From: Pseudomonadales bacterium
Lineage (GTDB): Bacteria > Pseudomonadota > Gammaproteobacteria > Pseudomonadales > CAWVSB01
Direction of reading: 5' to 3'
Length of the DNA: 64,000 nt
NCBI GenBank assembly: GCA_046710535.1
Contig: JBKEHH010000007.1
Span: 32,639-96,638, forward strand
In this document: in pieces, positions 10,594 to 62,481 of the stretch
Layout of the letters: each line of letters starts with the position of its first letter
Numbering within the stretch: position 1 is the stretch's first letter
Translations under genes and position numbers: made by a program
Notes under the pieces: generated by a model
The model's input: the letters and a program-made list of their open reading frames with translations, nothing else
Databases searched by the model: none
What the model was told of the DNA's origin: nothing

Positions 10594-11982
10594 CTATTTT
10601 AATTTTGCCATTACTGAACCAAATAATTCTTCATCAGAAGGTAATACTTTAGTTTTAGCTAATGGTTTTGACACCCAAGTTTCGTTGACTAAGTCGCGCC
10701 AGGTGATATTGTCATTAATGCTATTGCCACCCCATGAACCGCAACCCAAGGAGAAGGTTTGACGCATGCCATTCCATAAGTTACCGCTGTTTGAAGCCGA
10801 TTGTGGTTGGTTAACCATTACCCGAGAAGTTTTGGTTTCGCTGGCTAGCTTTAAAATATTATCATCATTAGTTGAGTAAATACCACAAGAGTGACCCTGG
10901 CCTTGATAGGCTTGAATATTGTTAGTTAGCGCAATCGCTTCATCAATATTACCTACTTTATACAGCGCCATAGTGACCGAGAGTTTTTCACCCGAGAAAG
11001 GATGCGCTGGACCGTAACCTGTTTCAGGAACAATAAAAAATAGTCTGTCGGCAGGCATATCAATGCCAGCCATAGTAGCGATTTTAGTCGCTTCTTGAGC
11101 CACAATAGCGGTGTTTAAATGGTCGTCTACCCAAATAGTATTTTGTAATTTGGTTTTGTCTTGGCCGTCTACTATGAATCCGCCTTGCGCTACTAGCTTG
11201 GCAAGCATGTCGTCATAGATTGTATCGAACAAAATAACCGAGTTGTCAGATGAGCAAGAAGCGGCTAAATCTAGAGTTTTAGAAATACGGATTTTTTCCG
11301 CTGCATCATCTAAGTCTGCAGTGTCATCAACCGTAATTACTGCATTGCCTACGCCAACTCCTAGCGCTGGTGTGCCGCTAGAATAGGCTGCCGATACCAT
11401 GGCCCCGCCGCCAGTTGCCAAGATGCGGTCACATTGTTTCATCAACTCGTTAGTTAATGGTAATGATGGTGTCTCTATACCAATGACTAAGTCGGCAGGT
11501 GCGCCCATGGCTTCAAGCGCTTCACGCATATAGTTACAGATCATGGTGTTAGTTAGTTTGGCGCGTGGGTGTGGTGCAATAATAATCGAGTTGCGACCTT
11601 TAACTGCCGAGATAGCTTTGATCACCGGCGTCGCTTCTGGGTTAGTTGAGGGTGATAGTGCGCCGATGACACCGACTGGTTTAGCAATTTTTACAATATT
11701 GCGTTCAGGTAGTTCTTCAATAATACCTACTGATTTGTCGTCAATAATATCCATTAAGGTAGCGCGAGTCTTTCTAAATATTTTTAGATACTTACCGTCA
11801 TAGTTACCTAGTCGAGTTTCTTCCACCGCGAATTTAGCAATTTTCTCAGCAATTCCTGGTTTGGCAATAGACCACACCATAGCCTTAATCAACTCATCAA
11901 CTTGCTGTTGGCTGTAGTGTTCTATTTGCGCTTGTGCCGCTCGGCTACGGGCAACTAATTCTGCCATCTGCTGCTGTTCCAT
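10594..11982 (-). CDS. CoA-acylating aldehyde dehydrogenase of the AdhE-N-terminal/EutE/SucD type (stand-alone)
   Basis: 462 aa. Collinear with my recollection of the E. coli AdhE ALDH domain: ..RAAQ..YSQQQVD.., ILATGGGAMV.AAYSSG.PALGVGVGN, the catalytic Cys region ASCSSDNSV, and C-terminal LGCGSWGGNSI. First gene of the operon. Confidence 0.8.
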   Translation of the reverse strand: MEQQQMAELVARSRAAQAQIEHYSQQQVDELIKAMVWSIAKPGIAEKIAKFAVEETRLGNYDGKYLKIFRKTRATLMDIIDDKSVGIIEELPERNIVKIAKPVGVIGALSPSTNPEATPVIKAISAVKGRNSIIIAPHPRAKLTNTMICNYMREALEAMGAPADLVIGIETPSLPLTNELMKQCDRILATGGGAMVSAAYSSGTPALGVGVGNAVITVDDTADLDDAAEKIRISKTLDLAASCSSDNSVILFDTIYDDMLAKLVAQGGFIVDGQDKTKLQNTIWVDDHLNTAIVAQEATKIATMAGIDMPADRLFFIVPETGYGPAHPFSGEKLSVTMALYKVGNIDEAIALTNNIQAYQGQGHSCGIYSTNDDNILKLASETKTSRVMVNQPQSASNSGNLWNGMRQTFSLGCGSWGGNSINDNITWRDLVNETWVSKPLAKTKVLPSDEELFGSVMAKLK

Positions 11983-12175
11983 GGTGTGCTCCTAAACTCT
12001 GTTGGTGCTAAAAATTGGCTAATCATCGTAATATTTTTAAGGTCGCAAGCATAGCCTTAGCGTGGCATGGTGCAAATTGAGTATATTGTCTTTATGATGG
12101 ACAATATTGCTGATTTTATGCGACTTAGCTTATTTCGATAATTTCACATAACTTTCTGATTAATATAGATTAATT

Positions 12176-13048
12176 ATGCAGATTACATCTAACTGGCCAT
12201 TGCCAGCTGAAGGTATTCGGTTTTTGGTGCCACAATTTTTACAAAATTGGTTACAGCAAAGCCCGTTGACACGTGACTTGTATCCTATTGCCTTGGGATA
12301 TTATCCGGTTGCTATCAACCATGTGATGAACCGGAGTAGTCATGATAATCATTTGCTGATGTATTGCACCCAGGGCAAAGGCTGGGTAACCGCAGCTGAT
12401 CAAAGCTTTCAAGTTACTGCTGGCGATGTGTTTTGTCTGCCTCGGGGTGTGGCGCATTCTTATGGCGCTGATAATAGCGACCCGTGGACCATTTATTGGG
12501 TGCATTACAATGGCGCTTTAAGCCATGACTATAATCAGTTTCTTGCTGGTGATAGCACCGTGGTTCATGTAGGGATTCAGCCTCGCTTACGGGCTGACTT
12601 TGAGGCGCTATTTAGTCTGCGCAAAGCCGGTTATTCTAGCGTCGAGTTTGTGCATGGCGCTTGCCAGTTAAAGCAGATGCTTAGCTACGTCGCAGTGCTC
12701 GCTAAACGCAGCTTATCAAGGCAGGGCCGGTTTAACTTAGATGATATTGAAGAGTTAATGGCGCTGCACATTCATAGCAGTCTCGATCTAGCATCGTTAG
12801 CAGCCCAAGCCCAGCTATCTAAATATCATTTCTCACGCAAGTTTAAACAGCTGACGGGGCATTCGCCAATTCAGCATTTTTTGCATTTAAAAATTCAGCA
12901 CGCTTGCCTATTGTTAGACACTAGCGACAATAGTATTAAGCAAATAGCGGGTGAAGTAGGTTACAGCGATGCTTATTACTTTTCGCGTCTTTTTAAGCAG
13001 GTTATGGGGGTATCGCCAAGTGGATATCGCAGTAAGTTAAAGGTTTAA
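12176..13048 (+). CDS. AraC family transcriptional regulator (cupin sensor plus HTH), divergent from the catabolic operon
   Basis: 290 aa. C-terminal AraC HTH (LSKYHFSRKFKQLTGHSP...GYSDAYYFSRLFKQVMGVSPSGYR). Confidence 0.85.
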   Translation: MQITSNWPLPAEGIRFLVPQFLQNWLQQSPLTRDLYPIALGYYPVAINHVMNRSSHDNHLLMYCTQGKGWVTAADQSFQVTAGDVFCLPRGVAHSYGADNSDPWTIYWVHYNGALSHDYNQFLAGDSTVVHVGIQPRLRADFEALFSLRKAGYSSVEFVHGACQLKQMLSYVAVLAKRSLSRQGRFNLDDIEELMALHIHSSLDLASLAAQAQLSKYHFSRKFKQLTGHSPIQHFLHLKIQHACLLLDTSDNSIKQIAGEVGYSDAYYFSRLFKQVMGVSPSGYRSKLKV

Positions 13049-13113
13049 TTCCTATATCGATAACTATTGCGCTGCTAGGATTAAAGCGAGCATATTTAAC
13101 CAAAGAGAGTGTC

Positions 13114-13713
13114 ATGCTAATAATAAAAATTACCGTTGCGCTATTGTTAAGCGCTAGCTTATCAATCGTGTTGTTTCTGGTGCAGTTAAAAAGTAGCAGT
13201 GGCTTTGGTAGCGTTAGCAATGGTGACTGGACTACCAGTCTTGATACTGGCTCTGAAAATGCTGGTGTTATGCAAAAGGCTGCGGTGGCTATAAGTGGTT
13301 TGTTGGCATCAAAGCGCGAAAGCTCGATTTATTATCGCTTGTCGGCAATTGACGGCAAGCCGCTAACTGTTAATTGCAGCTATCGAATAGAAGGCAATGA
13401 CTATGATGCTAACTGGTGGAGTATTACAGCCTATGGATGGGATAATTATTTACTGCCAAATGAACTAAAGCGATATTCATATAATAACGACAATTTAACG
13501 CGCGACGACAGCGGCAATTGGTCAGTGCAGGTAAGCGCAAAGTCACAAGGCGGCGACTGGTTGCCCATTGGCCCTGCCGGTGGCGATGACTGGAAAAATT
13601 TTAGTGATCATGATTTTGATTTACTGTTGCGCCTATACACGCCGGGAATTGCTTATTTACAAGCGCCTGATATCGCAGCGCTGCCCAAAGTAGTTGAAGA
13701 GGGTTGTTCATGA
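13114..13713 (+). CDS. DUF1214 domain protein, N-terminally membrane-anchored
   Basis: 199 aa with an N-terminal TM helix. The pattern WWSITAYG...RYSYNN...GDWLPIG...LLLRLYTP is typical of DUF1214. Confidence 0.7.
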   Translation: MLIIKITVALLLSASLSIVLFLVQLKSSSGFGSVSNGDWTTSLDTGSENAGVMQKAAVAISGLLASKRESSIYYRLSAIDGKPLTVNCSYRIEGNDYDANWWSITAYGWDNYLLPNELKRYSYNNDNLTRDDSGNWSVQVSAKSQGGDWLPIGPAGGDDWKNFSDHDFDLLLRLYTPGIAYLQAPDIAALPKVVEEGCS

Positions 13714-14243
13714 ATAAGATTAAGTGGTTAGTCGCGATTCTTCTTTTGGCATGGGTGGGCCAGTATGGGGTTGCAATGCTGGCACCCAATTTGATTATGC
13801 AAGCTCTGTATCGGGCTGTGGTTGATCTTAGCGGCGAAAATAATTTTGCGCTGACACCATTGCCAGATGAGACCACGAGAGGCGTAGTGCGGCCTAGCCC
13901 AGATTTATTTTACGGTATTTGTGCTTACAATGTTGAGAGTGGTCCAGTGTCCATTGAAGCCTTAGTACCGGAAAAATATTGGTCAATGCAGTTTTACCAA
14001 ATAAATACCGATAACTTCAGTAGTTTTAGCAATCAGCGAGATGAGTCTTACAGGGTAAATACCACAGCTAAGATTACCTTAATAAATGCAAGTGATGACG
14101 CCAGTAACTATCAAGGAGACGTGGTGCGGTCACCAACAGACAAAGGAGTGATGTTGATAAGGGTTTCGGCAATTGGTGATCAAGCGCAGCAGATGGCTGC
14201 GCTAAACTTAACTCGGTGTAGTGTCGCCGTTGATACTGAATAA
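13704..14243 (+). CDS. DUF1254 domain protein, N-terminally membrane-anchored
   Basis: 179 aa. The pattern RPSPDLFYGICAYNV..GPV......YWSMQFYQ is typical of DUF1254. 10-bp overlap with the upstream DUF1214 gene. Confidence 0.7.
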   Translation: MFMNKIKWLVAILLLAWVGQYGVAMLAPNLIMQALYRAVVDLSGENNFALTPLPDETTRGVVRPSPDLFYGICAYNVESGPVSIEALVPEKYWSMQFYQINTDNFSSFSNQRDESYRVNTTAKITLINASDDASNYQGDVVRSPTDKGVMLIRVSAIGDQAQQMAALNLTRCSVAVDTE

Positions 14244-14270
14244 AATAATTAACAGTGGTGAGTAGCGAGG

Positions 14271-15491
14271 ATGAATTTTGTTGTCTATGCAATTCCAGTT
14301 TTTATTTTGATGATAGCTATTGAATGGATTTGGGATAAGCGCCAAGAAAACAACTACTATCGACTTAACGATACGGTTAATAGCCTCAGCATGGGAATAC
14401 TGAGCACTACCAGTCGGTTAGTTTTTATTGATATTAGTGGGCGTGCATTTACGCTGTTACAGCAGCATTTTTCTATTGCCACTTGGGGTGAGGTCAATTA
14501 GTGGATGATTATCGTTGCCTTCGTCTTCTATGATTTCTGCTATTACTGGTTTCACCGTATAAGTCATGAGAAAAGTATTTTTTGGGCGTCCCATGTGGCT
14601 CATCATCAAAGTGAAGAATATAACTTAAGCACCGCATTGCGACAAACCAGCGCCAGCTTTTGGTTGGCGTGGGTTTTTTATGCGCCATGTTTTATATTGG
14701 GTATACCGGCGGAGCTTTTGGTCAGCGTGGCCAGTGCTAATTTGATTTATCAGTTCTGGGTGCATAAGCGCTATGTGCCACAGCCAGGGTGGTTTGAGAA
14801 AATATTTGTGAGCCCGTCAAATCATCGCGTGCATCATGCGCGTAATCCAGAATATATCGATAAGAATTATGATGGTATTTTTATTATTTTTGATCGAATA
14901 TTTGGCACCTATCTGCCCGAGCGTAAAGATTTGGCGGTAGATTTTGGTATTACCCGCGGCTTGAATAGTTGGAATCCATTGTGGGCTAACCTGCATGTAT
15001 ATGTCGGGATGATAAAAGACAGCATTGCTACTCCGCGCTGGGCAGATAAATTGCGGGTATGGGTTGGCGCCACCGGCTTTGTCGCGCCGGGTATTGTGAA
15101 GACTCCGGTTCAGGCTGGTAATTCGTATAATCCACCGTTATCAGTGGCACAGGAAACCTATGTAATTGTGCAGTTTGTATTGGTCTCTATGCTGTCTACT
15201 GCCATGTTATATAGTCAAGTAAGCTTTGATATCTTATTGATATTATTTGCTTTTTTACTGCTGTATCTGGTTTCAATTGGCTGGATTATAGATGGCAAGC
15301 ACTACACTATCGAATGGCTCAGAATGGCTCAGAATGGCTCAGAATGGCTCAGAATGGCCGTAGGGCTAGGCTTGTTATTCACAGAGCCTGCCCAGCAATT
15401 ATTAACTGTGTTGACGGCCGCATTAGTGGTTAACTTGCTATGGCTGATTTACTTGCAGCGACAGAAAAACGCTACTTTGGTCAATATTTAG
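14271..15491 (+). pseudogene. Sterol desaturase / fatty acid hydroxylase family gene interrupted by an in-frame TAG (14499..14501)
   Basis: Track ORFs 14271..14501 and 14505..15491 are in the same frame (...ATWGEVN*WMIIVAFVFYDFCYYWFHRISH...). The three His boxes HRISH, HVAHHQS and HRVHH all lie downstream of the stop. Confidence 0.75.
15312..15358 (+). repeat. Perfect 10-bp tandem repeat (GAATGGCTCA x4 plus a partial copy) inside the desaturase-family coding region
   Basis: Read directly: cGAATGGCTCAGAATGGCTCAGAATGGCTCAGAATGGCTCAGAATGGCCg. It is translated as EWLRMAQNGSEWLRMA. Confidence 0.9.
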
Positions 15492-15553
15492 GTTTATTGA
15501 GGGTGTTTTTTAGCCGTCCATGTGCTTGAATTTAAGCCATTGATAAAGCACAG

Positions 15554-16513
15554 GTGAAGAATAATAACTGCCTTGCTGAATTTAATTTCCAAAAGGGATT
15601 GGTGGACGGTATATACAAGCTGCAATATAGCGATTCTAGCAAAAATGTTTGGTTGACTGGTGACAAATTGAGCGTAGGGTCTGCCAACTCAAACGGTATC
15701 GCTGTGAGTGGTTCTGGGGTTGGGGAGCATCATGCTGATGTACGGGTTAATGGCGATAAAATCACCCTGTGTCCGATAGCTGGTTGTACTACGACGGTTA
15801 ATGGCGCAAAAGTTAACGCCAACAGAGACTTGCAGGTTGAAAATATCATGTCTTTTGCCAATGTGGGCATGAAATTAATACTGCCTGTGGAGCAAGCTAT
15901 CGGTGAGGCTGTAAAATCAACTCCCAAGGCACCAGATGCTAAAGTAAACCCTGAGTAAACCTGGCAAATTTTTGGCGCAGCAAAGCAAACCAAGAGTATC
16001 GTTGGTACAATAGTTGTCGGCCGTTCACCTGACTGCAGTATCACTTTTTCCCATGAACGCTTATCTCGTCGTCATGCTCAGTTTCATGAGTCTGATGGGG
16101 GTTTTTGGATTACCGATTTAGAGTCACCTAATGGCACTTTTGTTAATGGAAAACGGCTAGCGGCAGTTGAGCGCTTAAAAGATGGCGACAATATCTCTTT
16201 TGAAAAGCTGAAGTTTGTGGTTAACGCGCAAGCCCAAATGAGTTCAGCGGTTGCTGAAGACGAAGACGATGTCGGCAAAACTGTTGTCGGTTCAGCAATT
16301 AATTCTGAAGCGATCAAAAAAGCCCAAGCTGAACTAGTGAAAAGAAAGCGTCTGCAAGACGCTGAGCTAAAAATGGTGTCACAGCAAAATTTATAGTCTC
16401 AAGCTAAACTTAGGCCAGAAGCAGAAGGCGATGTCTCAAATATGATGATCATTGTGATAGTAGCAGTGGCTGTAGTGGCTGTTGCAGAAATCGCCGCAGT
16501 GGTATTAATGTAA
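15554..16513 (+). pseudogene. Tandem FHA-domain protein with a C-terminal TM anchor, one 320-codon frame with two internal stops (TAA 15956..15958, TAG 16394..16396)
   Basis: Own translation beyond track ORF 15554..15958. The same frame continues as TWQIFGAAKQTKSIVGTIVVGRSPDCSITFSHERLSRRHAQFHESDGGFWITDLESPNGTFVNGKRLAAVERLKDGDNISF..., then TAG, then ...NMMIIVIVAVAVVAVAEIAAVVLM, then TAA. Confidence 0.7.
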
Positions 16514-16532
16514 GCCTATTTTTCACCTTGTG

Positions 16533-17162
16533 CTATGCACTGTAGGCGCGCATAAAAACCTCAACGCAAGATTTCAAATAAGCCGCAGTCTTCTTTTTAG
16601 TAGGTGGGCGCATATTAAATAGCAGCATTTGGTGCGCATCTGCTTTAATCATAAAGGTAAATTGTCTAGCGGCAGCGTCAACATCTTCAATGTTTAAACT
16701 ACCAAGCCTATTTTGACTTTCGAGATAATTAGTAACTAGTTTGTTGATTTTTTGCGGACCATTTTCGTAAAACAGTTTGCTAAGAGTGGGGTGTGTGGGC
16801 GCAGTTGCGGCACATAGTCGAAACATTTTTATCGGTTCGTCAGATGTCAGTAAATCGTTCAAGTGCACCGCCAAATCAAGCATCATAGCTTCGCAAGAGA
16901 TATTGCGAGCAAAAAACTCTTCGGTTAAGTCGAACTCCTGTACTTTGTCTTCAATTGCAGCGCCAAACAGCGCTTCTTTTGACTGAAAATGGCTATAAAC
17001 CGTCTGTTTGGATACATCGGCCGAATTGGCAATATCATCCATAGTGGTGGAATCAAAACCTTGCTCCATGAACAGTTCGGCCGCCGCAGCAATAATCGCG
17101 CTGCGTTTGACTTGGCTTTTACTTCTGCCTTTGGAAGAGGTCTTTTTATTATCATTTGTCAT
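16533..17162 (-). CDS. TetR/AcrR family transcriptional regulator (divergent from the RND operon)
   Basis: 209 aa. N-terminal TetR HTH (AIIAAAAELFMEQGFDSTTMDDIANSADVSKQTVYSHFQSKEALF). Confidence 0.9.
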   Translation of the reverse strand: MTNDNKKTSSKGRSKSQVKRSAIIAAAAELFMEQGFDSTTMDDIANSADVSKQTVYSHFQSKEALFGAAIEDKVQEFDLTEEFFARNISCEAMMLDLAVHLNDLLTSDEPIKMFRLCAATAPTHPTLSKLFYENGPQKINKLVTNYLESQNRLGSLNIEDVDAAARQFTFMIKADAHQMLLFNMRPPTKKKTAAYLKSCVEVFMRAYSA

Positions 17163-17184
17163 TGCAATAAGCTTTATTTATCAT

Positions 17185-17199
17185 ACTAGACCGTCTAGT
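17185..17199. promoter_or_regulatory. Candidate TetR operator: perfect palindrome ACTAGAC-C-GTCTAGT in the TetR/RND divergent intergenic region
   Basis: Read directly. 7-bp arms around a single central base, located between the TetR start (17162) and the MFP start (17278). Confidence 0.4.
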
Positions 17200-17277
17200 T
17201 TAGTATTTGTTGATCTTATTTGCACCCCAGCCCGTAATTAAGTGGCATTTAGGTCGAATACATTTTAGGAGTTACCG

Positions 17278-18459
17278 GTGAAACGTTTTATTTTGACATT
17301 GTTGTCAGCAGGTTTTTTAGTCGCTTGCAGCGAAGAGCCGCAAGTGGTTTACCAAACAGTAACTGGTTTTACTCCGGTAAAGACCGAATATTATGAAGTT
17401 GAACGCTTGTTTATTGGTCGCGTTAGCGCAAGCCAGCAGGCAAATATAAGCTTTGAAACTCAAGGAATTGCTGAAGAGCTGTTGGTTGATCAAGGTGAAA
17501 AAGTGAGTAAGGGGCAAGCTTTAGCTAAGCTCGATATAAGCTTGTTGAAAACACAAAGCAGAGAACTGGCTGCGCAATTACGTGACACCAGGTCTCGTAG
17601 AACATTGGCCGAAAACAGCTTGCGTCGGCAAAAAGATTTAAAAGCAAATGGCTTTACTGCTGAGCAGCGAATAGACGAGCTAACGAGTGAAGTTGAGAGT
17701 TTGGTGGCAGTGCAGTCCAGGCTTGGTGCTTCATTGAACGCCAACGATATTCGATTAAAAAAAGCAGTATTAAAAGCACCGTTTACCGGCGTCGTAAGTC
17801 GTCGGTTCGTCGATGCTGGTACGGTTGTCGATCCAAGTCAGCCGATATTTCAAATAATTGATGAAGGTGGTTTAGAGTTAAATGTGGGGATTCCGGCTGG
17901 CTTAGTTGGCTCGCTAGTTACTGGTGATTCATATATTGCTCAAATTGACGGCGTTGAGACCATGGCGATATTTATTTCTGCTGCTGCTCATTTAGATCAA
18001 ATAAGCCAATCTGTACCAGTACGGTTTGCGTTAACTGATATTGAGGCGCGAGATGGGCAGACAGCAGTGGTCGGCATTACTAAAAAGCAGCAGATAGCTG
18101 GTTTTTGGGTGCCTATAGAATCGGTCACAGAAGGAATGCGTGGCTCTTGGGTTGTCTATGGGCTGGAAGGAAAGTCTGCGCTAAAAACACTGACGCAAAG
18201 TGCTGTTGAGATTTTACATGTCGATGATGATAGCTTTTATGTGAAAGCAGATATTACTGGCGATATCGTAGCCTCTGGAATGCACAAAGTCGTGCCGGGG
18301 CAGCTGGTGGAATTAGTTGTTATTGAAGCTGAGCAAGCGCCTACTATAGAGATAATTGATAGCGCCGGCGATCTGGCAGTAGTCGAGGGTGTTGTTTTAG
18401 ACCAGCCAGAACCTATTGCGCCTGGGGCAGATGAAAATTCTGCAGTGGTAGCTGAATAA
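17278..18459 (+). CDS. Efflux RND transporter periplasmic adaptor (MFP) lipoprotein
   Basis: 393 aa. Lipobox LLSAGFLVAC. Coiled-coil hairpin region and beta-barrel motifs. GTG start preceded by AGGAG. Stop overlaps the RND gene start. Confidence 0.9.
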   Translation: MKRFILTLLSAGFLVACSEEPQVVYQTVTGFTPVKTEYYEVERLFIGRVSASQQANISFETQGIAEELLVDQGEKVSKGQALAKLDISLLKTQSRELAAQLRDTRSRRTLAENSLRRQKDLKANGFTAEQRIDELTSEVESLVAVQSRLGASLNANDIRLKKAVLKAPFTGVVSRRFVDAGTVVDPSQPIFQIIDEGGLELNVGIPAGLVGSLVTGDSYIAQIDGVETMAIFISAAAHLDQISQSVPVRFALTDIEARDGQTAVVGITKKQQIAGFWVPIESVTEGMRGSWVVYGLEGKSALKTLTQSAVEILHVDDDSFYVKADITGDIVASGMHKVVPGQLVELVVIEAEQAPTIEIIDSAGDLAVVEGVVLDQPEPIAPGADENSAVVAE

Positions 18460-21400
18460 TGTTTGATAAAATTGTCGCTAATCCTAGACTTATTATTTTA
18501 CTGATAGGCCTACTTATTGTTGCTGGGTTGTCGGCGTTGAAGACACTGCCGCGGCTAGAAGATCCACGTTTATCGAGTCGTTTTGCGATTGTAAAAACGT
18601 TTTGGCCTGGAGCTTCAGCTGAAAGAGTCGAAGCGTTGGTGACGCGTAAGATAGAAGATGCGATACGCGAACAAAAAGACATTAAAAATATATCCTCGAA
18701 TAGTCGGGCTGGCGTGTCAGTAGTGCAAGTTGAGTTAGTTGACCAAGTCAAAAATGGAAAAGAGTCATTTACAGAGGCTCGACAAAAAGTTGAAAACATT
18801 CTTAATACTTTGCCCGCCGGAACTTCACGCCCTGAGTTTGAAGTAGCTTCATTGGGGGCAGAGACAGTTATTGTTGCCATTAATTGGATGGCCGATAGCG
18901 AGCCAAATGTAAATTTATTGGGTCGTTATGCTAAAGAGTTAGAATCGCGGTTACGGTCGGTACCCAGTACTGATGAAGTAAATGTGTATAGCTTGCCGCA
19001 AGAAGAAATATTGATAGAGATCGATTTTGTTAAGGCGATTGCCTTGGGTTTGTCGGTTGCTGAAATATCTCAAATCGTCGCTCAAGCCGATTCGAAAATA
19101 TCTGCAGGTGAGTTAAGCAATGACAAATATCGCTGGCAGCTTGAAGTTGATGGCGAATTCCAATCTCTGGAGCGTATAAAACAAATTCCGTTGCGCGCAG
19201 GCTTCGCTGGAGAAGGGGCGCGCTTGCGCGATATCGCTACTGTTGTGCGCACACCCAAATTGCCAGCAACAGAGCTTGCTATTATCGACGGAAAGCAAGC
19301 TGTTGTCGTCGGCTCCCGAATGGGCGCGGGCGTACGAATAGAGGTTTGGCGAAAAAATGTGCAGCACGTTTTTGACCAGTTTGAAAATGAGCTGCCAGTC
19401 GAAGTTGCTTTATCTATGCGCTTTGATCAGATCGGCTATACCCAAACCCGGCTGGCTGAGCTGGTGGGCAATATCGGCGTTGGTTTCGTCATTATACTAC
19501 TAGTACTATTTGTTACCTTGGGTTGGCGAGCGTCATTGATTGTTGCGGCATCGCTGCCATTAACTATTTGTTTTACCCTTTATTGTTTAAAGCTTTACGG
19601 TATGCAAATACACCAAATGTCGGTTACTGGCTTGGTGGTGTCACTAGGTATTATGGTCGATAACGCGATCGTGATGACTGACTCAGTGGCGCAAAATCGG
19701 CGCTTAGGCCTGTCTACATTAAAAGCTATTAAAAAGTCACTGTTACATTTAAAGGTACCCTTATTAGGGTCTACGCTAACAACCATTTTGGCCTTTTCAC
19801 CGATTGCATTGATGCCTGGCGCTGGTGGCGAGTTTGTTGGGCCGATTGCGTTGGCGGTAATGTTTTCCTTGATTGGTTCTTATCTTATATCGTTTACCTT
19901 AGTGGCGGGTGTTGCTGGCCGTTGGTTACCAGTAACGTCGCCAGATAAAAACTTACTGTTAAACAAACAATGGTTTAAATATGGCATTGAAGTGCCTGAT
20001 ATTGCCGATAAGTTTGCTAGTTCGTTGCGCACGGCATTAATTTGGCCTGGTAGAACAATAGCGGGTGTTGTTGCTATCTCTTTTTGTGGCTACTTCGGCG
20101 CCACCTTTATGACCACTAGTTTTTTTCCTCCCGCCGATAGAGATATGTTTCAAATTCAGATCTACATGCCGCCCGATGTTGGTATTAACACCACCAGAGA
20201 GATTACCGAACAGATTGCTGAAGATGTTAAAAAGATAGACGGCATAGAAAAGATTGATTGGTATATCGGCAATGGTGCACCATCGTTTTACTACAATTTA
20301 TTTTCTGGCAGCGAAGGAATGACCTTTTATGCGCAAGCGATGGTTAAGGCTAAAGGGTATAAAGAATCTGACCGCGCGATACATCTTATTCAGCGTGAGT
20401 TAAACCACAAATATCCTATCGCTCAAGTAATGGCAATGAAGCTACAGCAAGGCCCACCGGTTGATGCGCCGGTAGAGTTTCGAATTTACGGGCCTAATTT
20501 GGACACCTTAAAAGAGCTGAGTAATCAGGTGCGCCTAGCGGCGTCACAAGTTGAAGGCGTATTGGCTTCGCGCGCGACCATAGAGCCAGCCAGGAAAAAA
20601 CTCTGGATCAATTTGTCAGAAGACAAAATGGCTAAAGTCGGGATGAGCTTAGCTGATGCTTCACGGCAATTTCACGCTGCACTAGTGGGCGTAATTGGTG
20701 GCAGCGTTATTGAGGGTGGTGAAGATGTGCCAGTGCGCACCAGAATTGCTGATGAGCATCGGGGTAACTATAACCACATACTCAGTGGTTACCTCATGGT
20801 GGGTGATGCTGATAATCGCAGTATGGTGCCATTGTCTGCTTTGGGTGGCGCTAGTGTTAAGCCTGACTCTTCAGGCATAACGCGACGTAATGGTCAGCGC
20901 ATATCTGAGGTGCATATATTTCCGGTGGCCGATGTATTGCCTCAGTCTGTGTTGGCGGCCGTAATAAAACAGTTAGATAAGAATGGCTTTACAGTGCCCG
21001 CCGGCTATGCACTGGGGCTTGGTGGCGAAGCTGACGGCAGAAGCGATACCATGAGTGAGATGATGGTTTACGTTAATATTATTATCGCTTTACTCATTAT
21101 GGTGGTGGCCTTATCGTTTAACTCATTTAGATTAACGGCGGTGGTATTTAGCGTTGCTATTTTGTCAGTTGGCTTAGGCATGCTGAGCGTGTTTTTGGCC
21201 GGTTATTCTTTTGGTTTTATAATTATAGTAGCGCTAATGGGTTTAATGGGCTTGGCGATAAATGCTGCAATTGTCATTTTGGCGGAGTTTAAAAACAATC
21301 CGGCTGCTTGTCGTGGTAACACTGATGCAATTATTGAATGTGTGATGAGTTGCTGTCGCCACATTGTATCGACGACTTTAACGACTGTAGGCGGCTTAAT

Positions 21401-33965: not shown

Positions 33966-34044
33966 AATAAACGATTTTTTTGTCCTTATTAGAATCTATC
34001 TTCTAGTCTAATTGGCTATAATTTTTATTTTTGGAATCAGCCTT

Positions 34045-35343
34045 ATGGCACCGCGCAAATTATCACCTCTTTCTGGAGAGTCATCATTGACTAAAGCTTC
34101 GCTAGGCCTAAAAGGCGGTATGCGGATGGCTCAAACCTTAGGCAAGGTTTATCCGCAGGCGTTAAAGCTGTTGCTAGGCTGGCGCAAGCCGACAGCCAAA
34201 GAAGTACGCGAGTTATTTGAATCTTTAGGTGTAACCTATATAAAGTTTGGTCAGCTTATTGCTAGCTCGCCATCTATTTTCCCTAAAGAATATGTCGATG
34301 AATTTCAAACCTGCTTAGACCAAACAACGTCGGTGCCGTTTTATCAGATCAGAGAGATTGTTGAGGCAGAGTTAGGCAAGCCTTTGGATGCAGTGTATTC
34401 GTCGTTTGAATATAAGCCATTAGCCTCAGCCTCTATTGCGCAAGTGCATGCGGCAACCTTAATAACTGGCGAAGATGTAGTCGTTAAAGTACAAAAGCCT
34501 GGCGTCGAGACCATTGTGACAACGGATATGAATGCGGTATTTCTAATGACCCGCTTAATGGAAATTATTGTTCCAAAAATGGATAAAGATTCGATTAGCG
34601 GCTTGGTGTCTGAGCTGTATCAAGCGATGATTGATGAATGCGATTTCGAAAAAGAGGCGAATAACCTCCGTCAGTTTGATGCATTTTTAACCCGCACGGG
34701 AAATCCGTATGTGATTGTACCTAAACCTTATGCCAAGGCGACTAGCAAGCGGGTATTAACGATGGAGCGTTTATATGGGGTGGCATTAACCAACGATGAT
34801 GCACTTAAAAAATGTAAGTCTGATCCAGCGGCGTCGCTATTTAATGCACTCAACACTTGGTTTGCAAGCCTGGATCAATGTGATTTTTTCCATGCAGATT
34901 TACATAGTGGTAATATTTTATTACTCGATGATGGTCGCATTGGTTTTATTGATTTTGGTATGGTGGGGCGTATACCGCCCAAAGCATGGAAGGCGATGAC
35001 CGAGTTTTTTGCTGCAATTAGCAATCAGGATTACAAGCTAATGGCAGAGTCGATGGTAGCGGTAGGAATGACTAAAATCGATGTCAACATTACTGCTTTG
35101 GCCAGTGACATAGAGAATTTGTTCGCGCCACAATTTGAAATGATGAATGAGAACAGTGGACCAAGTGACGATGTTGAGAAACTACTCAGTGAGCTTGGTG
35201 CAGTTGCTAATAACTACGGTATTCGGTTTCCGCGGGCATTTACTTTAGTAGTTAAACAGTTTTTATATTTTGACCGATATATGCAAATACTAGCCCCTGG
35301 GCACAATGTTTTTAATGATGACAGGATTGATTTGTTACAGTAA
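34045..35343 (+). CDS. ABC1/UbiB-family atypical protein kinase (soluble, about 430 aa)
   Basis: ABC1 motifs YIKFGQLIASSP, ASIAQVH.A and HADLHSGNIL..DGRIGFIDFG. The track ORF starts at TTG 34012. ATG 34045 is more plausible. Confidence 0.8.
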   Translation: MAPRKLSPLSGESSLTKASLGLKGGMRMAQTLGKVYPQALKLLLGWRKPTAKEVRELFESLGVTYIKFGQLIASSPSIFPKEYVDEFQTCLDQTTSVPFYQIREIVEAELGKPLDAVYSSFEYKPLASASIAQVHAATLITGEDVVVKVQKPGVETIVTTDMNAVFLMTRLMEIIVPKMDKDSISGLVSELYQAMIDECDFEKEANNLRQFDAFLTRTGNPYVIVPKPYAKATSKRVLTMERLYGVALTNDDALKKCKSDPAASLFNALNTWFASLDQCDFFHADLHSGNILLLDDGRIGFIDFGMVGRIPPKAWKAMTEFFAAISNQDYKLMAESMVAVGMTKIDVNITALASDIENLFAPQFEMMNENSGPSDDVEKLLSELGAVANNYGIRFPRAFTLVVKQFLYFDRYMQILAPGHNVFNDDRIDLLQ

Positions 35344-36862: not shown

Positions 36863-38239
36863 ATGAAAGAAAAGCTAACTAGGATAAAAAGTAAACGACT
36901 TGAACGTCGTCTGTCGGTATCTATTGCTGGGCTCAGAGCCGGCGGGGCGATTGCTTTAGGTCGCTCCACTGACTGGCTATTGAAAGCCGACGAGCGCAAA
37001 AGTAAGCGTAAAGTTGTGCTTGCCAAAGAAGCCAAGCGCTTTGCCAGTGAGTTAGGCAAGCTCAAAGGAAGTTATGTCAAAATTGGCCAAATGTTGGCGC
37101 TGTTTGGCGAGCATTTATTACCTAAAGAATTGACCGCAGCGCTCCATGAGTTAGAGCATCAAACTGTGGCTCTAGACTGGCCTATTATTGAAACAGCTCT
37201 GACGGAAGAGTTGGGTGATATTTTAGGTGAGCTAATGATTGAACCAGAGCCTTTGGCTTGCGCATCGATTGGTCAGGTTCATCGCGCTAAAATCATTGCT
37301 ACCGGTGAAGAAATTTGCCTCAAGGTTCAGTATCCCGGCGTCGAGGAAACCATCGACTCTGATTTCTCCGATGTGGTGGCGATGCTTAAATTGGCGAATT
37401 GGCTGAAAACTAGCCGTAATTTAGATTTATTACTGGAAGATATTCGCAAGCTATTACATGAAGAAACTGACTATCAGCGCGAAGCAGTGATGACAGTCAA
37501 TATGGCTAATTTACTTAAAGGCGATAAGCGCTTCCAAGTGCCGGCAGTGCATCAGCGCTTCAGTACCAAGAAAATTATCGCTTTAGAGTTTATTGAAGGC
37601 TTTGAGGTGACTGCTAGCAATGTACAAGAACTGCCATTGGCTAGGCGTAACAAGTTAGCCAAAGCTATGCTCGACCTGTTGATGAAAGAAATATTTGAAT
37701 GGGGGGTGTTGCAAACAGATCCCAATTTCGGCAATTATCGTATTAAGAGTTCAAGTAAAAGTGACAAGTTGGTATTGCTAGACTTTGGCGCAGTAAGAGC
37801 GTTTGATAATTCATTTTTAAACCCTTTGCGTGCCACAATTACTGGTGCCTATCACAACGATAAAGCGGCAGTAGTGCAGGGTGTTATCGATTTAAAATGT
37901 ATTGATGGATGCCACCCTAAAAGTGTGCAGGAGTCATTTGCAGAATTTTGCATGGGTTTGCTTGAGCCACTGCGAGAGGATTTTGATGGTGTCAGTTCGG
38001 ACTGGATTAACGAGCAGGGTGAATATTGCTGGGCTAAGTCGACATTAATTAGGCGCGCTGCCAAGCAAGCAGCTAAGTCGTCATTTAGCCTTCACTTTAC
38101 CGTTCCACCGCAAGAGTTTGCATTAATTGCCCGTAAGCTTACTGGCGTTTTCACTTTTATAGTGGTGCTCGATGCCGAATTTAATGGCCACGATATTCTT
38201 AAAAGTTATGTAGATAATTGGGAGCAAAATTCCTACTAG
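36863..38239 (+). CDS. ABC1/UbiB-family atypical protein kinase, second paralogue
   Basis: 458 aa. Motifs YVKIGQMLALF, ASIGQVHRA and QTDPNFGNY......LVLLDFG. Confidence 0.8.
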   Translation: MKEKLTRIKSKRLERRLSVSIAGLRAGGAIALGRSTDWLLKADERKSKRKVVLAKEAKRFASELGKLKGSYVKIGQMLALFGEHLLPKELTAALHELEHQTVALDWPIIETALTEELGDILGELMIEPEPLACASIGQVHRAKIIATGEEICLKVQYPGVEETIDSDFSDVVAMLKLANWLKTSRNLDLLLEDIRKLLHEETDYQREAVMTVNMANLLKGDKRFQVPAVHQRFSTKKIIALEFIEGFEVTASNVQELPLARRNKLAKAMLDLLMKEIFEWGVLQTDPNFGNYRIKSSSKSDKLVLLDFGAVRAFDNSFLNPLRATITGAYHNDKAAVVQGVIDLKCIDGCHPKSVQESFAEFCMGLLEPLREDFDGVSSDWINEQGEYCWAKSTLIRRAAKQAAKSSFSLHFTVPPQEFALIARKLTGVFTFIVVLDAEFNGHDILKSYVDNWEQNSY

Positions 38240-38294: not shown

Positions 38295-39029
38295 ATGATT
38301 TTTCGCTTATGTGCTGTCAGTCTACTGCTGTTACTTAGCGCTGTTACTTATAGTGTTGAGTTTAAAAGTGGCGATAAGCAAGTTCAACTAATTGAGCTAT
38401 ATACCTCTGAGGGTTGCAGTAGTTGCCCTCCAGCAGATAATTTTTTAACTACGTTTTTAGATGATCCTACTTTATGGCACAGTCGAATACCGATAGCCAT
38501 TCATGTCGATTACTGGGACTACATCGGTTGGCAGGATCGCTTTGCTTCAAAAGAAAACTCTGCACGCCAGCGACTACATGCGCAACAAGGCAATGTATCT
38601 CAGGTCTATACGCCGGGTTTTATTGTCTCTGGTGAAGAATGGCGCAGCTGGTTTTTAGGTGATAGAACAATTCCGACCTCGCGCGCTTAACCTGGAGAAT
38701 TACTGTTAAGCGTTGATGATAAATCGTTTAATGCCAGTTTCTCTCCCATTAAAAATGTTGGCAGTAAATTAGAACTGCATCTGGCACTGCTCGGTTTCGG
38801 TCTGGTTAATGACATAGACGCTGGCGAAAATCACGGCCGCAAGCTCGCGCATAACTTTGTTAAATTAAGCGAAACCGTTGTTATTAGTCGAGACCAATCA
38901 TGGCAGGGTGAATTGCCAAGCATTCCACAAAATATGCAAGATTATAAGCAATTGGCAGTGGTTGCTTGGGTCAACAGCGTAAAAAATATTAAATCAATAC
39001 AGGCAACTGGTGGCTGGCTAGAAAACTAA
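38295..39029 (+). pseudogene. DUF1223 (thioredoxin-like CxxC) secreted protein gene interrupted by an in-frame TAA (38688..38690)
   Basis: The track lists only 38295..38690 (ELYTSEGCSSCPPAD motif). The same frame continues after TAA for 112 codons (PGELLLSVDD...DAGENHGRKLAHNFVKL...GGWLEN*) to 39029. That gives the usual DUF1223 length of about 244 codons. Confidence 0.75.
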
Positions 39030-45068: not shown

Positions 45069-45151
45069 AAAAGCTATTACTTTGCAGATAGTGGCACGAC
45101 AGTTTTGGGCTGCTACATTTGTGTTCAAATATTTATCCTAAAGAGCTAGTT

Positions 45152-45952
45152 ATGTCGCAAACAAAATTTGATCAAGATACAGCCATAAGCCAAGTTAGTG
45201 AATTGGTGTGGCAAGCCGAGCTCGATGCTGGTTGGTGTGTTGGGCCGGTACCAAACGGCGGTTATGTTCTTGCAATTGGTGCCAGAGTATTGAGTGCCGC
45301 ATTGCCCCATAAAGATCCTCTGACAACCAGTGCTTACTATTTTGCACCCACTCATGCCGGGCCAATTAAATGTCAGATGGAAGTTATTAAGCAGAGCGGC
45401 TCTACCGCATTCGGTATGGTACGTATGTATCAAGATGATGAGTTAAAAGTACAAATAACCGCTTCGTTTACGACTCTTGCTCAAATGAGAGGTGAAAGTC
45501 TACAGCTCGACCCCGCTCCGCCAGTGGCAAAATTAGTAGATTGTGTAAGAGTGCCATCGGCTGATTTTATCCAGATTGGCAAGCAAACCATCCAAATGAT
45601 TGAGCCCGGTATGGAGCAAGCGTTTGTAGGTAAACCCACCGGTGAAGGCGAGTTTGCTGGTTGGGTCAGCTTACCCGATACAGACGAAGCTGATTTGTTT
45701 GCCTTACTAATGTTTAGTGATGCCATGCCACCACCGGTATTTAATATTTTTGGTGCTTTAGCATAGGTGCCAACCATAGAATTAAATGTTCAAATTAGAG
45801 CTATGCCAGCGCCTGGGCCAATCCAGTTTAAATTCAGTAGTCGTAATTTAACCAACGGTCTAACTGAAGAAAACGGTTGGTTATGGGATAGCACCGGTAA
45901 GCTAGTGGCGATGAGCCGACAAACAGCAAAATTTAGAGTTGCCAAACAATAG
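45152..45952 (+). pseudogene. Acyl-CoA thioesterase-like (double hotdog, 4HBT_3-type) gene interrupted by an in-frame TAG (45764..45766)
   Basis: Track ORFs 45119..45766 and 45767..45952 abut in the same frame: ...PPPVFNIFGALA*VPTIELNVQIRAMPAPGPIQFKF...WLWDSTGKLVAMSRQTA. Together they make one thioesterase-length protein. Confidence 0.7.
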
Positions 45953-50030: not shown

Positions 50031-51251
50031 TTACTGGTCAACATAGGTGGAAATTGCTCGCAGCATTGTTACATTTTCATTCATATGGGCAGTAAAGTTT
50101 GGGTCTACGGCCGTCCGGGCAATAACCACTCCCCGTTTTTCATCCACCCAAATATGTTGGCTCCAAATACCTGATGCAAAATATTCTCGGTCATAGTCTT
50201 CAGGCACCCACCATTGGTATTGATAGCCGCGGTAGCCTCTTACGTTTTTAGGCTGTACATGGGGGCTGTCAGGTGTAGTGGCTTCCACTATCCATTGTTT
50301 AGATAGCAACTGTTGGCCATTCCAGACGCCGCCTAATCGATATAGTTCGCCCAAGTGGGCAAAATCTCTAAGGGTCGCGTTAAGGCAGCAAAAAGTGACT
50401 GCCGACTTTTCATCACTGCTATCTAGTAACCAATTGGCATCTGACCCCATCCCTGCAGGTTGCCATAGCCGTTGTTCAATAATTTCTGCGAATGGCCTTT
50501 ACATGACCTTTTCAACTAGCCAGCCTAAAATTTGAGTGTCACTAGAGCGATACTCCCAGCGGCTGCCTGGCTCTTCTTTTTTGCCATAGTCACCGGCTAA
50601 CTGATTCATATTGAGGCCAAATATCCATGCGGCATTAGTTATCTTTTGCACATCTGAAAAAGCTAATGCGGTGTTGCTGCCAGCCGCACCATAAGATTCA
50701 AAAAAATCTACGCCGGATGACATTTGCAACACATCTTTAATGGTCGCTTCGCCATATGCTTTACCGCTTAATTCAGGAATATACTTTTGGACTTGGTCAT
50801 CAACGCTGGCAATTAAACCATCGTCAATTGCCATGCCTACCATGGTAGAGACAAAGCTTTTTGCGACCGACCAGCTTGTGTGCAAACTGTCTTTAGTTTC
50901 ACCTAGGCGATATTGCTCGTGGATAACAATTCCGTCTTTAATAACAATTAAACCAGTAGTATTAGTGCGTTCTAAATTGTCTGACAGGGCAATAGTTTTA
51001 CCGTCAAACTGATAGCTAAACTCTAACGGCTTAGACTGATTTGGCCACTGATGAGTTTGCTCTGCTTTGTGAATAGGCTGTGATGGATAGAGTTTATCCA
51101 TATTGCGAAAATGCTCGACGCGCTCACCCTCTAAAAAGGTTCTAGTCATGTCGGCAGGCGAGTACTCAGCCCAAGGTTGATAGAAGATAAGCGCTGCGGT
51201 TATAACTATCATCAGCAGTATGGCGCCGATAGCTTTTAGCCATGGTGACAT
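50031..51251 (-). pseudogene. Beta-lactamase-family serine hydrolase gene interrupted by an in-frame TAA (50499..50501)
   Basis: Track ORFs 50499..51251 (SxxK motif SWSVAKS) and 50031..50450 share one frame: ...ILGWLVEKVM*RPFAEIIEQRLWQPAGMGSDANWLLD... The bridging 16 codons are typical family sequence. Confidence 0.75.
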
Positions 51252-58406: not shown

Positions 58407-58964
58407 CTAATTACTGTCAATAGCAATGACTAAAGTAGAAATAATTTTATAGTAACTAAAAATAACGACAAGGAAAAAAATGAATAGGAGCATCTCATGC
58501 TTAAAATGATGGCGCAGGTAGAAATAGCGGTCTTTATGGTGCAGCACGTCCATTAATTCATCGACGAAGCGAATAGAAAGAAATGTATCGATAACAGATA
58601 AGAAAATAACAATCCAATATGGATAAGGGTTGGTTAATATGACTTTTATGAGTTGGGTAAGAAAGGTAGTCTCATAAAATTCACTGAAATACATTAAGCA
58701 AAAAACATTGATCAATATAGCAATCGCCCATACAACTATTTCCTATAATATCATGCTGATACCAAATATAAGCATCAGCGGGAAATCTAATAAGAAGCCA
58801 GCATCGGCAACTGGTATGCATAGTACAAAAAAGCTCCATGTTATTAAGGCTGCTATACTTCCAGTTAATAAATCATACTGATAGGTTAAATACATAAAAT
58901 AAAAAAATAACAGCAAACATAGTAATAGAAACTTTATTAATACCTGGTGACGAGGATGCTTCAT
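58407..58964 (-). pseudogene. Hypothetical polytopic membrane protein written as two in-frame ORFs separated by TAG (58743..58745)
   Basis: Track ORFs 58743..58964 and 58407..58715 are in the same frame: ...LIFGISMIL*EIVVWAIAILINVFCLMYF... A hydrophobic helix runs through the junction. Confidence 0.55.
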
Positions 58965-59044
58965 GGCCTTCTTATTAACCTGGTTTGTTGATTAATTGTT
59001 TGCTTATACAGTCTAGTGATTAATAGGTTCGTCAGATGAAAAAT

Positions 59045-61708: not shown

Positions 61709-62240
61709 TCAATCACTGCGCGATAATAAAAAGTATTCGGTTGATCGGAGGACTTCTGCGCAATCATAAGCTTTTGCTGATCTTTATTTTTTCAGAAGTA
61801 ATTTATCAATCTTATTTAACGGCTATTCAGGAAAGTACATTTGTGTAATAAGCTCAACATACTCCCTTTTCGTCACCTTAAAATTAATATGTGGAGGTCG
61901 AACCCATCCCAGCGCAACTGGATAAGAACCAGGCAATACCGTCTAAAATTTGAATTCTCCATCTTTACCGGTCTAAACTATGGCCCAGCCCTGAAATTTT
62001 TCGTCCGCCGGTGCTAGGTTAGAATCATGTGGCTGGCGATATTTCCCGGCCGCCTTAGCTTGCCACATATCAATAGTAGCGTTCTCTACAGGGAGCCCCT
62101 CTGTGTCAACAATACTTCCATAGACAAAGATATGCTCTTCCAATGCCTCCATGTTACTATTATCAACGGTGATAAGATAAAAATCTTTATTTTTTTACGC
62201 AATTACTGGGTGGAACGGCCCCTTTATTTCGGCCGTCGTC
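61709..62240 (-). pseudogene. Intradiol ring-cleavage dioxygenase-family remnant with five in-frame stops and no frameshift
   Basis: Own translation, not in the track: TTAEIKGPFHPVIA*KNKDFYLITVDNSNMEALEEHIFVYGSIVDTEGLPVENATIDMWQAKAAGKYRQPHDSNLAPADEKFQGWAIV*TGKDGEFKF*TVLPGSYPVALGWVRPPHINFKVTKREYVELITQMYFPE*PLNKIDKLLLKK*RS... Stops at 62195, 61973, 61943, 61823 and 61784. No start codon found. Confidence 0.65.
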
Positions 62241-62481
62241 GGTTGGCTATTGCGGAGTGGCTGATTACTCCAACCGTATCTAGAGCCCCAGCTTTGCCTA
62301 GCTTTCTATTGACATCCACTATATCAATAAGAGACGAACCTGCTCTTAGTTGAGTTAAACCAATATCATCTGCTAATGGGCGCTCTACAACACAGCCTAA
62401 AACAGCACAATAGAAATTAATAAGAGCTATATTTTGTTCGGTGCGTAGTAAGATGTGATCTATCGCCCTTGGTTTTGTCAT
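62224..62481 (-). pseudogene. VOC (glyoxalase/bleomycin resistance/dioxygenase) family N-terminal fragment
   Basis: 85-aa ORF. IDHILLRTEQ...FYCAVLGCVVER...GLTQLRAGSSLIDIV is a typical first VOC module. The second module is missing. The 3' end overlaps the start of the dioxygenase remnant in another frame. Confidence 0.55.

Follow-up and report, generated by a model that had tools for sequence, protein, structure and literature searches.

A probable lineage-specific pseudogene for a tandem-FHA, tail-anchored protein next to a broken lipid-hydroxylase gene

The locus and its coding frame

The window considered here is a 64-kb stretch of DNA (64,000 nucleotides in all) taken from a 156,441-bp contig of a metagenome-assembled genome (MAG) annotated as "Pseudomonadales bacterium." On its plus strand, from 15611 to 16513, lies an interrupted gene whose layout is FHA domain, FHA domain, linker, and transmembrane (TM) helix. 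It comprises 300 codons, a count that takes in the native stop and the two stops within the frame, and it aligns codon by codon, without a gap, with intact orthologues of 298-300 amino acids at seven other loci (L001, L002, L005, L085, L086, L087, and L089).

Read from a GTG at 15554, the frame runs for 134 codons to a TAA (15956-15958), for a further 145 codons to a TAG (16394-16396), and for a last 38 codons to a TAA (16511-16513). An initial annotation of this DNA had described three in-frame pieces with stops at 15956, 16394, and 16511, and all three stops are present at those coordinates. It had also remarked that the second FHA piece has no start codon until a GTG at about 16215; the earliest in-frame start after the TAA at 15956, whether ATG, GTG, or TTG, is indeed a GTG, at 16217. 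Given the base composition of the sequence, a random open stretch of 145 codons has a probability of approximately 1.6e-4, and the whole 15554-16513 frame aligns with the orthologues at an E value of approximately 1e-139; together, these values rule out a chance origin for the FHA frame. The minus-strand open reading frames (ORFs) at 15730-16044 and 16084-16317 match no Pfam family and are antisense to a conserved plus-strand gene, and we therefore take them, as the initial annotation did, to be shadows of that gene.

Both FHA pieces score above the Pfam cutoff for the family (PF00498, 20.7 bits). FHA domain 1 (15671-15850, plus strand) is degenerate, with 22.3 bits for Pfam FHA and 28.5 bits for Yop-YscD_cpl. 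In this domain GS replaces GR and AEHH replaces SxxH, leaving it without the residues that bind phosphothreonine (pThr), and judged from its sequence, it is probably not a pThr binder. FHA domain 2 (16010-16201, plus strand), the one that lacks a start codon of its own, is canonical (73.5 bits, E value of 1.9e-20), and the columns holding its GR, SRRH, and NGT motifs are invariant in the window and in all of the orthologues. The frame ends in 23 codons for a hydrophobic tail-anchor helix (16442-16510, plus strand), and the hydrophobic character of this C-terminus is conserved in the orthologues.

The true beginning of the gene lies downstream of the GTG at 15554. The preceding stretch (15492-15610, plus strand) is a conserved non-coding leader that contains this GTG, the false start chosen by gene callers, as well as an SD-like GGTGGA at 15601-15606. 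The leaders of the orthologues vary by indels whose lengths are not divisible by three, which identifies the 19 codons from GTG 15554 to 15611 as non-coding. All of the orthologues start at an ATG that sits in the motif MYKLQ and corresponds to position 15611, and the gene is therefore 300 codons long (15611-16513) instead of 320. Where the orthologues have this ATG, the window reads ATA (15611-15613, plus strand). This is the first of three lesions; the codon is ATG in all six distinct orthologous loci that were aligned and ATA in the window only. The second lesion is the in-frame TAA at 15956-15958, at which L001 (a Porticoccus MAG) has AAA and L002 (a Cellvibrionales MAG) has GAA, the residue being Glu or Lys across all orthologous proteins. 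The third is the in-frame TAG at 16394-16396, which is TTG in L001 and TTA in L002; 11 of the 12 close orthologues have Leu or Met at this site, and the remaining one (P0009) has Ser. In the DNA alignment each of the two stops differs in a single base from the sense codon of the orthologues, so that the gene carries three disabling point substitutions and, over 300 codons, not one indel. The initial annotation had envisaged one 320-codon product struck by two nonsense lesions. The single product stands; the length was too great by 20 codons, and the change of the start codon from ATG to ATA had been overlooked. NCBI and JGI both annotate the pieces as distinct proteins, a 134-amino-acid fragment that starts at GTG 15554 and a hypothetical protein of 59 amino acids.

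The gene immediately upstream is broken as well. It belongs to the fatty-acid-hydroxylase family, is annotated as an alkylglycerol monooxygenase, and occupies 14271-15491 on the plus strand, where TAG replaces TGG at 14499-14501. Near 15310-15360 a CAGAATGGCT repeat of this gene has also grown by 30 nt, an expansion that keeps the frame. In the four loci that span the whole of the hydroxylase gene (L001, L085, L086, and L087), it is intact at 396 amino acids. The hydroxylase and FHA genes adjoin in the same orientation in every orthologous locus that spans both. A scan of 14100-17400 for promoters and terminators gave results at or near the shuffled expectation and is uninformative on co-transcription.

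A search with the conceptual product of the FHA gene returned 12 orthologous proteins of 67-79% identity. Eleven are 297-300 amino acids long; the other, P0010, has 285 and appears to be clipped at its C-terminus. In each of the 12, one ORF encodes the two FHA domains together, and the hydrophobic C-terminus is kept in all except P0010. None of them takes the form of separate short proteins, the outcome that would have told against the initial annotation. Its view that the pieces must belong to a single FHA-FHA-linker-TM product is borne out by the layout of the close orthologues and by a structural model of an intact one, described below.

A genome scan placed two of the orthologues, those of L001 and L002, and five further loci come from TARA and JGI metagenomes and from Logan assemblies. 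The metagenome scan with protein alignment picked up generic FHA-core peptide patterns; among its 80 loci, the only true orthologue was that of L005 (TARA), and the DNA of the other orthologues was obtained through exact-protein look-ups. The FHA gene is uninterrupted in all seven syntenic loci, at 298-300 codons, and the gene order around it is common to them, the longest loci reading AraC, DUF1214, DUF1254, hydroxylase, FHA, TetR, MFP, and RND. Distant tandem-FHA homologues (P0013, P0014, and P0021) lack the hydroxylase-FHA pairing and have unrelated neighbourhoods, and the support that synteny lends to a link between the two genes is thus confined to one clade.

Selection and mutation on the window lineage

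Codon alignments were made across the syntenic loci for the FHA gene and for seven of its neighbours, and changes were scored as private when they occur in one lineage at a site where all others agree. For most pairs of intact FHA orthologues, pairwise omega lies between 0.08 and 0.13 (0.18-0.19 for L001 versus L002 or L005); pairs that include the window give 0.14-0.26. Depending on the set of loci used, the ratio of nonsynonymous to synonymous private changes (N:S) in the FHA gene of the window is 19:2 or 21:4, against 48:43 for the other lineages together (Fisher p = 0.001). In the flanking genes, the private N:S of the window is 1:4 for AraC, 1:3 for DUF1214, 7:10 for TetR, 20:29 for MFP, and 20:111 for RND; comparison of the 21:4 of the FHA gene with the 47:150 of the right-hand flanking genes yields a Fisher p of 6e-9. 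The hydroxylase gene of the window has 13 private nonsynonymous changes and no private synonymous change (14N:1S when polarised, as opposed to 2:7 in L001), and its private N:S also differs from that of the left-hand flanks (Fisher p = 2e-4).

Polarising the window branch with an outgroup gives 36N:13S for the FHA gene versus 11N:31S for TetR (p = 8e-6), the former being close to the approximately 3:1 expected without selection. The same comparison between the window and L001 branches of the FHA gene (36:13 versus 8:8, p = 0.12) is not significant on its own. The private replacements strike otherwise invariant residues in both FHA domains and in the linker, and one of them, A294E, puts a Glu in place of an Ala midway along the membrane helix. 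Purifying selection has been relaxed on the window lineage, and the relaxation is confined to the FHA and hydroxylase genes, which seem to have decayed together.

The spectrum of changes is in keeping with decay. GC-to-AT changes relative to AT-to-GC changes number 40:24 in the pseudogenes and 102:147 in the intact flanks (p = 0.003), and such a bias is what mutation without selection usually leaves behind. Genome-wide drift toward AT was considered as a source of the bias and rejected; the GC and GC3 contents of the genes in the window equal those of their relatives. About 49 substitutions on its branch have left the frame of the FHA gene without an indel, a slightly surprising outcome if the pseudogene is old.

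The relation between the window and L001 is a mosaic one. Their identity is approximately 97% between 11235 and about 15,700 and 74-88% from there to 18216, with the break falling inside the FHA gene near 15,710-15,780. Either recombination has produced a mosaic or the L001 contig is chimeric, and in both cases estimates of branch length are complicated. The FHA gene has approximately 88% DNA identity to L001, compared with 97-98% upstream, and accelerated evolution of the gene was entertained as an explanation. We rejected it: identity is lower for everything beyond about 15,750, TetR and MFP included, and the drop therefore marks the mosaic boundary.

Origin of the stops and the case for a dead gene

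Three other genes of the window are interrupted by an in-frame stop: a DUF1223 gene on the plus strand (TAA at 38688), an acyl-CoA thioesterase gene on the plus strand (TAG at 45764), and a gene for a class-C beta-lactamase-related hydrolase on the minus strand (TAA at 50499). For all three, the Pfam match and the alignment with a solved homologue extend straight across the stop, which in the thioesterase falls opposite a Trp of that homologue. In total, six nonsense codons affect 5 of the approximately 55 genes in the window, and all are UAA or UAG. The absence of UGA among them is uninformative, as nonsense mutations at 43% GC mostly give TAA or TAG; these two codons also end 37 of the 41 long ORFs in the window (90%). 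No disruption of the frameshift type was seen within the 64 kb, and lesions that consist only of substitutions are the one mildly unusual aspect of the pattern.

We consider it very probable that 15611-16513 is a lineage-specific pseudogene and one half of a decaying two-gene pair. The verdict draws on three things in combination: intact syntenic orthologues, disabling lesions, and a relaxation of selection that the neighbouring genes do not share. Of the two options put forward by the initial annotation, the first, a gene dead through nonsense mutation, is supported more firmly than that annotation had supposed, by the three disabling substitutions, by the near-neutral pattern of change, and by the death of the adjacent gene. 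In the population for which the MAG stands, three single-base substitutions (ATG to ATA, A/GAA to TAA, and TTG to TAG) disabled the FHA gene and another (TGG to TAG) the lipid-hydroxylase gene adjacent to it upstream, and both genes have afterwards drifted without purifying selection. On the most economical reading, the hydroxylase-FHA pair would have ceased, as one unit, to be useful or to be expressed. The full-length product would no longer be made, and at most a short fragment limited to FHA1 might be initiated from GTG 15554 or GTG 15602.

It is very improbable that such a fragment is the functional product of a remodelled, shorter gene, that is, a soluble protein of 118-134 amino acids with FHA1 only, running from GTG 15554 or GTG 15602 to the TAA at 15956, the distal part alone being dead. 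Gene callers do predict the 134-amino-acid ORF, and GTG 15602 stands just 3' of an AAGGGA motif. Identity to L001 is also still approximately 95% in the 5' third of the gene, but this figure is due to the mosaic relation between the two, in which the upstream genes are included, and not to constraint. A retained FHA1 would have to function despite the loss of the native ATG, the missing pThr-binding residues, and private changes at five otherwise invariant sites of the first piece (S26N, G77E, D78N, E88K, and S97I), and no stand-alone FHA1 of this kind occurs among the orthologues and homologues that we found.

We regard it as very unlikely that the stops are artefacts of sequencing, assembly, or binning, or minority alleles, in an organism that has an intact gene. 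The suspicion is a natural one for a sequence that comes from a metagenome-assembled genome, that has five interrupted genes in 64 kb, a high rate, and whose lesions are all substitutions, with no indels. The Logan assembly of SRR28961167, made with a different pipeline, is nevertheless 100% identical to the window from 15329 to 19010 (3,682 bp), all three FHA lesions included, and it reproduces the stops at 45764 and 50499 as well. The stops are consequently not the artefact of one assembler. The Logan assembly was probably built from the same reads as the MAG, and the population that was sampled could also include an intact allele. Random errors, on the other hand, would be spread evenly, whereas only the broken genes show an excess of nonsynonymous change, AraC, TetR, MFP, and RND being normal.

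The second option of the initial annotation, expression by readthrough, fared badly, and we hold it to be extremely improbable. It would require that the UAA at 15956 and the UAG at 16394 both be read through, by a suppressor tRNA or through leaky termination, following initiation at an alternative GTG or TTG, so as to yield the full-length protein. Sequential readthrough of a UAA and a UAG at ordinary bacterial background rates gives negligible product. The frame kept over 300 codons without an indel, the retention of the GR, SRRH, and NGT motifs in FHA2, and six stops in five genes that are all UAA or UAG and never UGA, the pair that an ochre suppressor reads, are what one might expect of readthrough. 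Against these stand the sense codons that all orthologues carry at both positions, the loss of the start codon in addition to the two stops, and a branch N:S near the neutral 3:1, with invariant residues struck. The residues replaced reveal no coherent recoding, being Glu or Lys and mostly Leu or Met in the FHA gene, Trp in the hydroxylase, and, by alignment, Trp in the thioesterase, and the sequence contexts of the six stops have nothing in common. Efficient suppression would also be costly where TAA and TAG are the normal terminators of 37 of 41 long ORFs. No tRNA gene is present in the 64-kb window, and 14000-17500 contains no Rfam match. There is just as little likelihood that the lineage at large tolerates ochre and amber stops, by means of a suppressor tRNA or weakened termination, and still makes the products of its interrupted genes at some level; in that event the FHA gene and the others would not be simply dead.

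The ancestral protein and its relatives

A dead gene can still be informative about the protein that it specified. The AlphaFold model of an intact orthologue (P0002) has beta-sandwiches at residues 1-93 (pLDDT 77-92) and 113-210 (pLDDT 70-91), both in agreement with the eleven-stranded fold of FHA domains, then a long helix at 232-266, modelled at low confidence, and a terminal helix at 280-299, the tail anchor. Foldseek matched the model to FHA structures with a probability of 1.00, and the individual domains matched those of FhaA, OdhI, GarA, EmbR, and CT664 with target-normalised TM scores of 0.8-0.9. The ancestor would have been a tail-anchored protein of approximately 300 amino acids, in which a degenerate FHA domain at the N-terminus was followed by a canonical, pThr-binding one, then by a charged linker of helical structure, and finally by a membrane anchor at the C-terminus. 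This anchor may have kept the two FHA domains on the cytoplasmic side of the inner membrane. We infer that its role was that of a membrane-tethered phosphothreonine adaptor. Neither a Hanks-type kinase nor a PP2C phosphatase is encoded within the 64-kb window.

The curated NCBIfam families that we compared (FhaB/FipA, OdhI, TagH, and SctD) all give this protein scores far under their cutoffs; for TagH, an FHA protein of the T6SS, the score is 43.1 against a cutoff of 120.25. The nearest relatives of FHA2 in sequence (OdhI and GarA being the closest in the PDB, E value of 4e-8) and in fold (TM 0.8-0.9, rmsd 1.1-1.4 A) are stand-alone pThr-binding FHA proteins of bacteria, OdhI/GarA and FhaA (Rv0020c) of Corynebacterium and Mycobacterium, with which it shares the GR, SxxH, and NG motifs of pThr binding. 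These relatives are soluble or built from domains in another arrangement, and they are without the second, degenerate FHA domain and the C-terminal anchor. The OdhI score is 44.6 where the equivalog cutoff is 200, and the copy in the window is in any case dead.

The best NCBIfam match is to FhaB/FipA (Rv0019c), like the present family a small FHA protein with a single TM tether. The 58.5 bits of this match lie under the cutoff of 125, and the taxon is a different one. FipA has one FHA domain, at its C-terminus, with the TM helix N-terminal of that domain, whereas the present family has two FHA domains and its TM helix at the extreme C-terminus.

Another relation is suggested by SctD/YscD/MxiG, the inner-membrane ring component of the T3SS with a cytoplasmic FHA-like domain, given that both of our FHA domains match Pfam Yop-YscD_cpl. 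MxiG/SctD is an FHA-plus-TM protein of similar architecture (PMC3162421). The score for SctD (TIGR02500) is 20.7 against a cutoff of 86, however, and the present protein ends at its TM helix and has no periplasmic domain. T3SS genes are absent from the window and from the orthologous loci.

The ABC transporter Rv1747 (PMC3138270) and EssC, the T7SS ATPase (PMC4925161), are also membrane proteins with two consecutive FHA-type beta-sandwich domains, which are N-terminal and cytoplasmic. In both, the FHA pair is attached to a large transporter or ATPase body, whereas here there is only a linker and a tail anchor, and the tandem FHA structure of EssC (5fwh) is a poor match, ranked 30th by Foldseek with an rmsd of 11.6 A. 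The layout of an N-terminal FHA domain, a helical linker, and a C-terminal tail anchor recurs in SLMAP, to whose FHA domain there is a weak sequence match (6ar0, E value of 0.0024). According to PMC5663475, SLMAP binds the autophosphorylated linker of MST2 and recruits STRIPAK; its description as a tail-anchored membrane protein appears in the reference list of that paper. SLMAP differs in being eukaryotic and in having a single FHA domain, and it is not orthologous; the resemblance is one of architecture alone and is probably convergent. A search of the literature found nothing directly relevant on bacterial tail-anchored FHA proteins or on pseudogenes of Porticoccaceae.

The intact family is an uncharacterised tandem-FHA, tail-anchored protein, and the copy in the window is an ordinary broken gene of one uncultured marine bacterium. 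The current understanding of translation and of FHA signalling is unchanged by this finding. Its practical consequence concerns the public records: NCBI entries MFQ3323988-90 list, as separate proteins, hypothetical proteins of 134 and 59 amino acids and a 328-amino-acid "alkylglycerol monooxygenase," and pseudogene flags are due for them. For the organism, nonsense codons in 5 of approximately 55 genes, with no frameshift, suggest a lineage that is shedding accessory genes. For the family, the joint decay of the FHA and hydroxylase genes, together with their conserved pairing in Porticoccaceae-like bacteria, gives a weak hint that the tandem-FHA adaptor may work with, or be co-expressed with, a membrane lipid hydroxylase.

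A Second Pseudogene Upstream of the FHA Gene

The fatty-acid-hydroxylase-family gene directly upstream of the tandem-FHA gene (window positions 14271–15491) is a pseudogene as well. Codon 77 has changed from TGG to TAG in the window (14499–14501), and the gene is intact, at 396 amino acids, in four relatives. Along the branch leading to the window's sequence, the hydroxylase gene has accumulated 14 nonsynonymous changes as against 1 synonymous change. A tandem expansion of the 10-nt unit CAGAATGGCT, at approximately 15310–15360, adds 30 nt in frame, placing 10 extra residues (QNGSEWLRMA-like) in the C-terminal part of the protein relative to all orthologues. Public annotation of the locus records only the 328-aa remainder, under the name alkylglycerol monooxygenase. 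A 318-aa homologue of the hydroxylase encoded on other JGI contigs (P0044) begins at the same internal methionine as this remnant; this may reflect truncation at a contig edge or a separate N-terminal disruption in another lineage.

Mosaic Relation to the Porticoccus Contig and Potential FHA Partners

The relation of the window to L001, the Porticoccus MAG contig that carries intact copies of both genes, is mosaic. Over window positions 11235–18216, identity is approximately 97% to the left of a breakpoint and 74%–88% to its right, and the breakpoint itself (approximately 15,710–15,780) falls inside the FHA gene. The mosaic stems either from homologous recombination between lineages or from chimeric assembly of a metagenome contig; a contig of the separate Logan assembly covers the window's side of the junction.

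As for potential partners of the FHA protein, neither a Hanks-type Ser/Thr kinase nor a PP2C phosphatase was found within the window, whose only kinase-like genes are two of the atypical ABC1/UbiB type that lie near each other (34012–35343 and 36863–38239).

Other Interrupted Genes and the Nature of the Lesions

Three further genes are each split by a single in-frame stop. The DUF1223 gene (38295–39029) contains an in-frame TAA at 38688–38690, with Pfam positions 1–85 before the stop and 130–200 after it, and the alignment to PDB 2axo continues across the interruption. Likewise, the alignment to PDB 8rlj runs through the TAA at 50499–50501 in a class-C beta-lactamase-related serine hydrolase gene (50031–51251, minus strand), a stop also present in the Logan assembly of SRR28961167 (locus L095). 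That assembly (locus L096) shares, in addition, the TAG at 45764–45766 of an acyl-CoA thioesterase II-like gene (45119–45952); because this codon aligns with a tryptophan of PDB 3bbj, the comparison suggests that the stop arose as TGG to TAG. Between 58.4 and 64 kb, where coding density is low, there are two more places at which one TAG divides a pair of open stretches in the same frame (58407–58991, minus strand, TAG 58743; 61820–62353, plus strand, TAG 62015). Since neither pair has a Pfam match, each may be another broken gene, from an unknown family, or simply a coincidence.

In total, the window holds six in-frame TAA or TAG codons, distributed over 5 of approximately 55 genes; one of these genes has also lost its start codon, and another has a repeat expanded in frame. 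Judged by Pfam coverage, no frameshift-type disruption was found across the window, and its GC content is that of its relatives. This substitution-only pattern of lesions could be due to chance or to a substitution-biased mutator; suppression is a less likely explanation.
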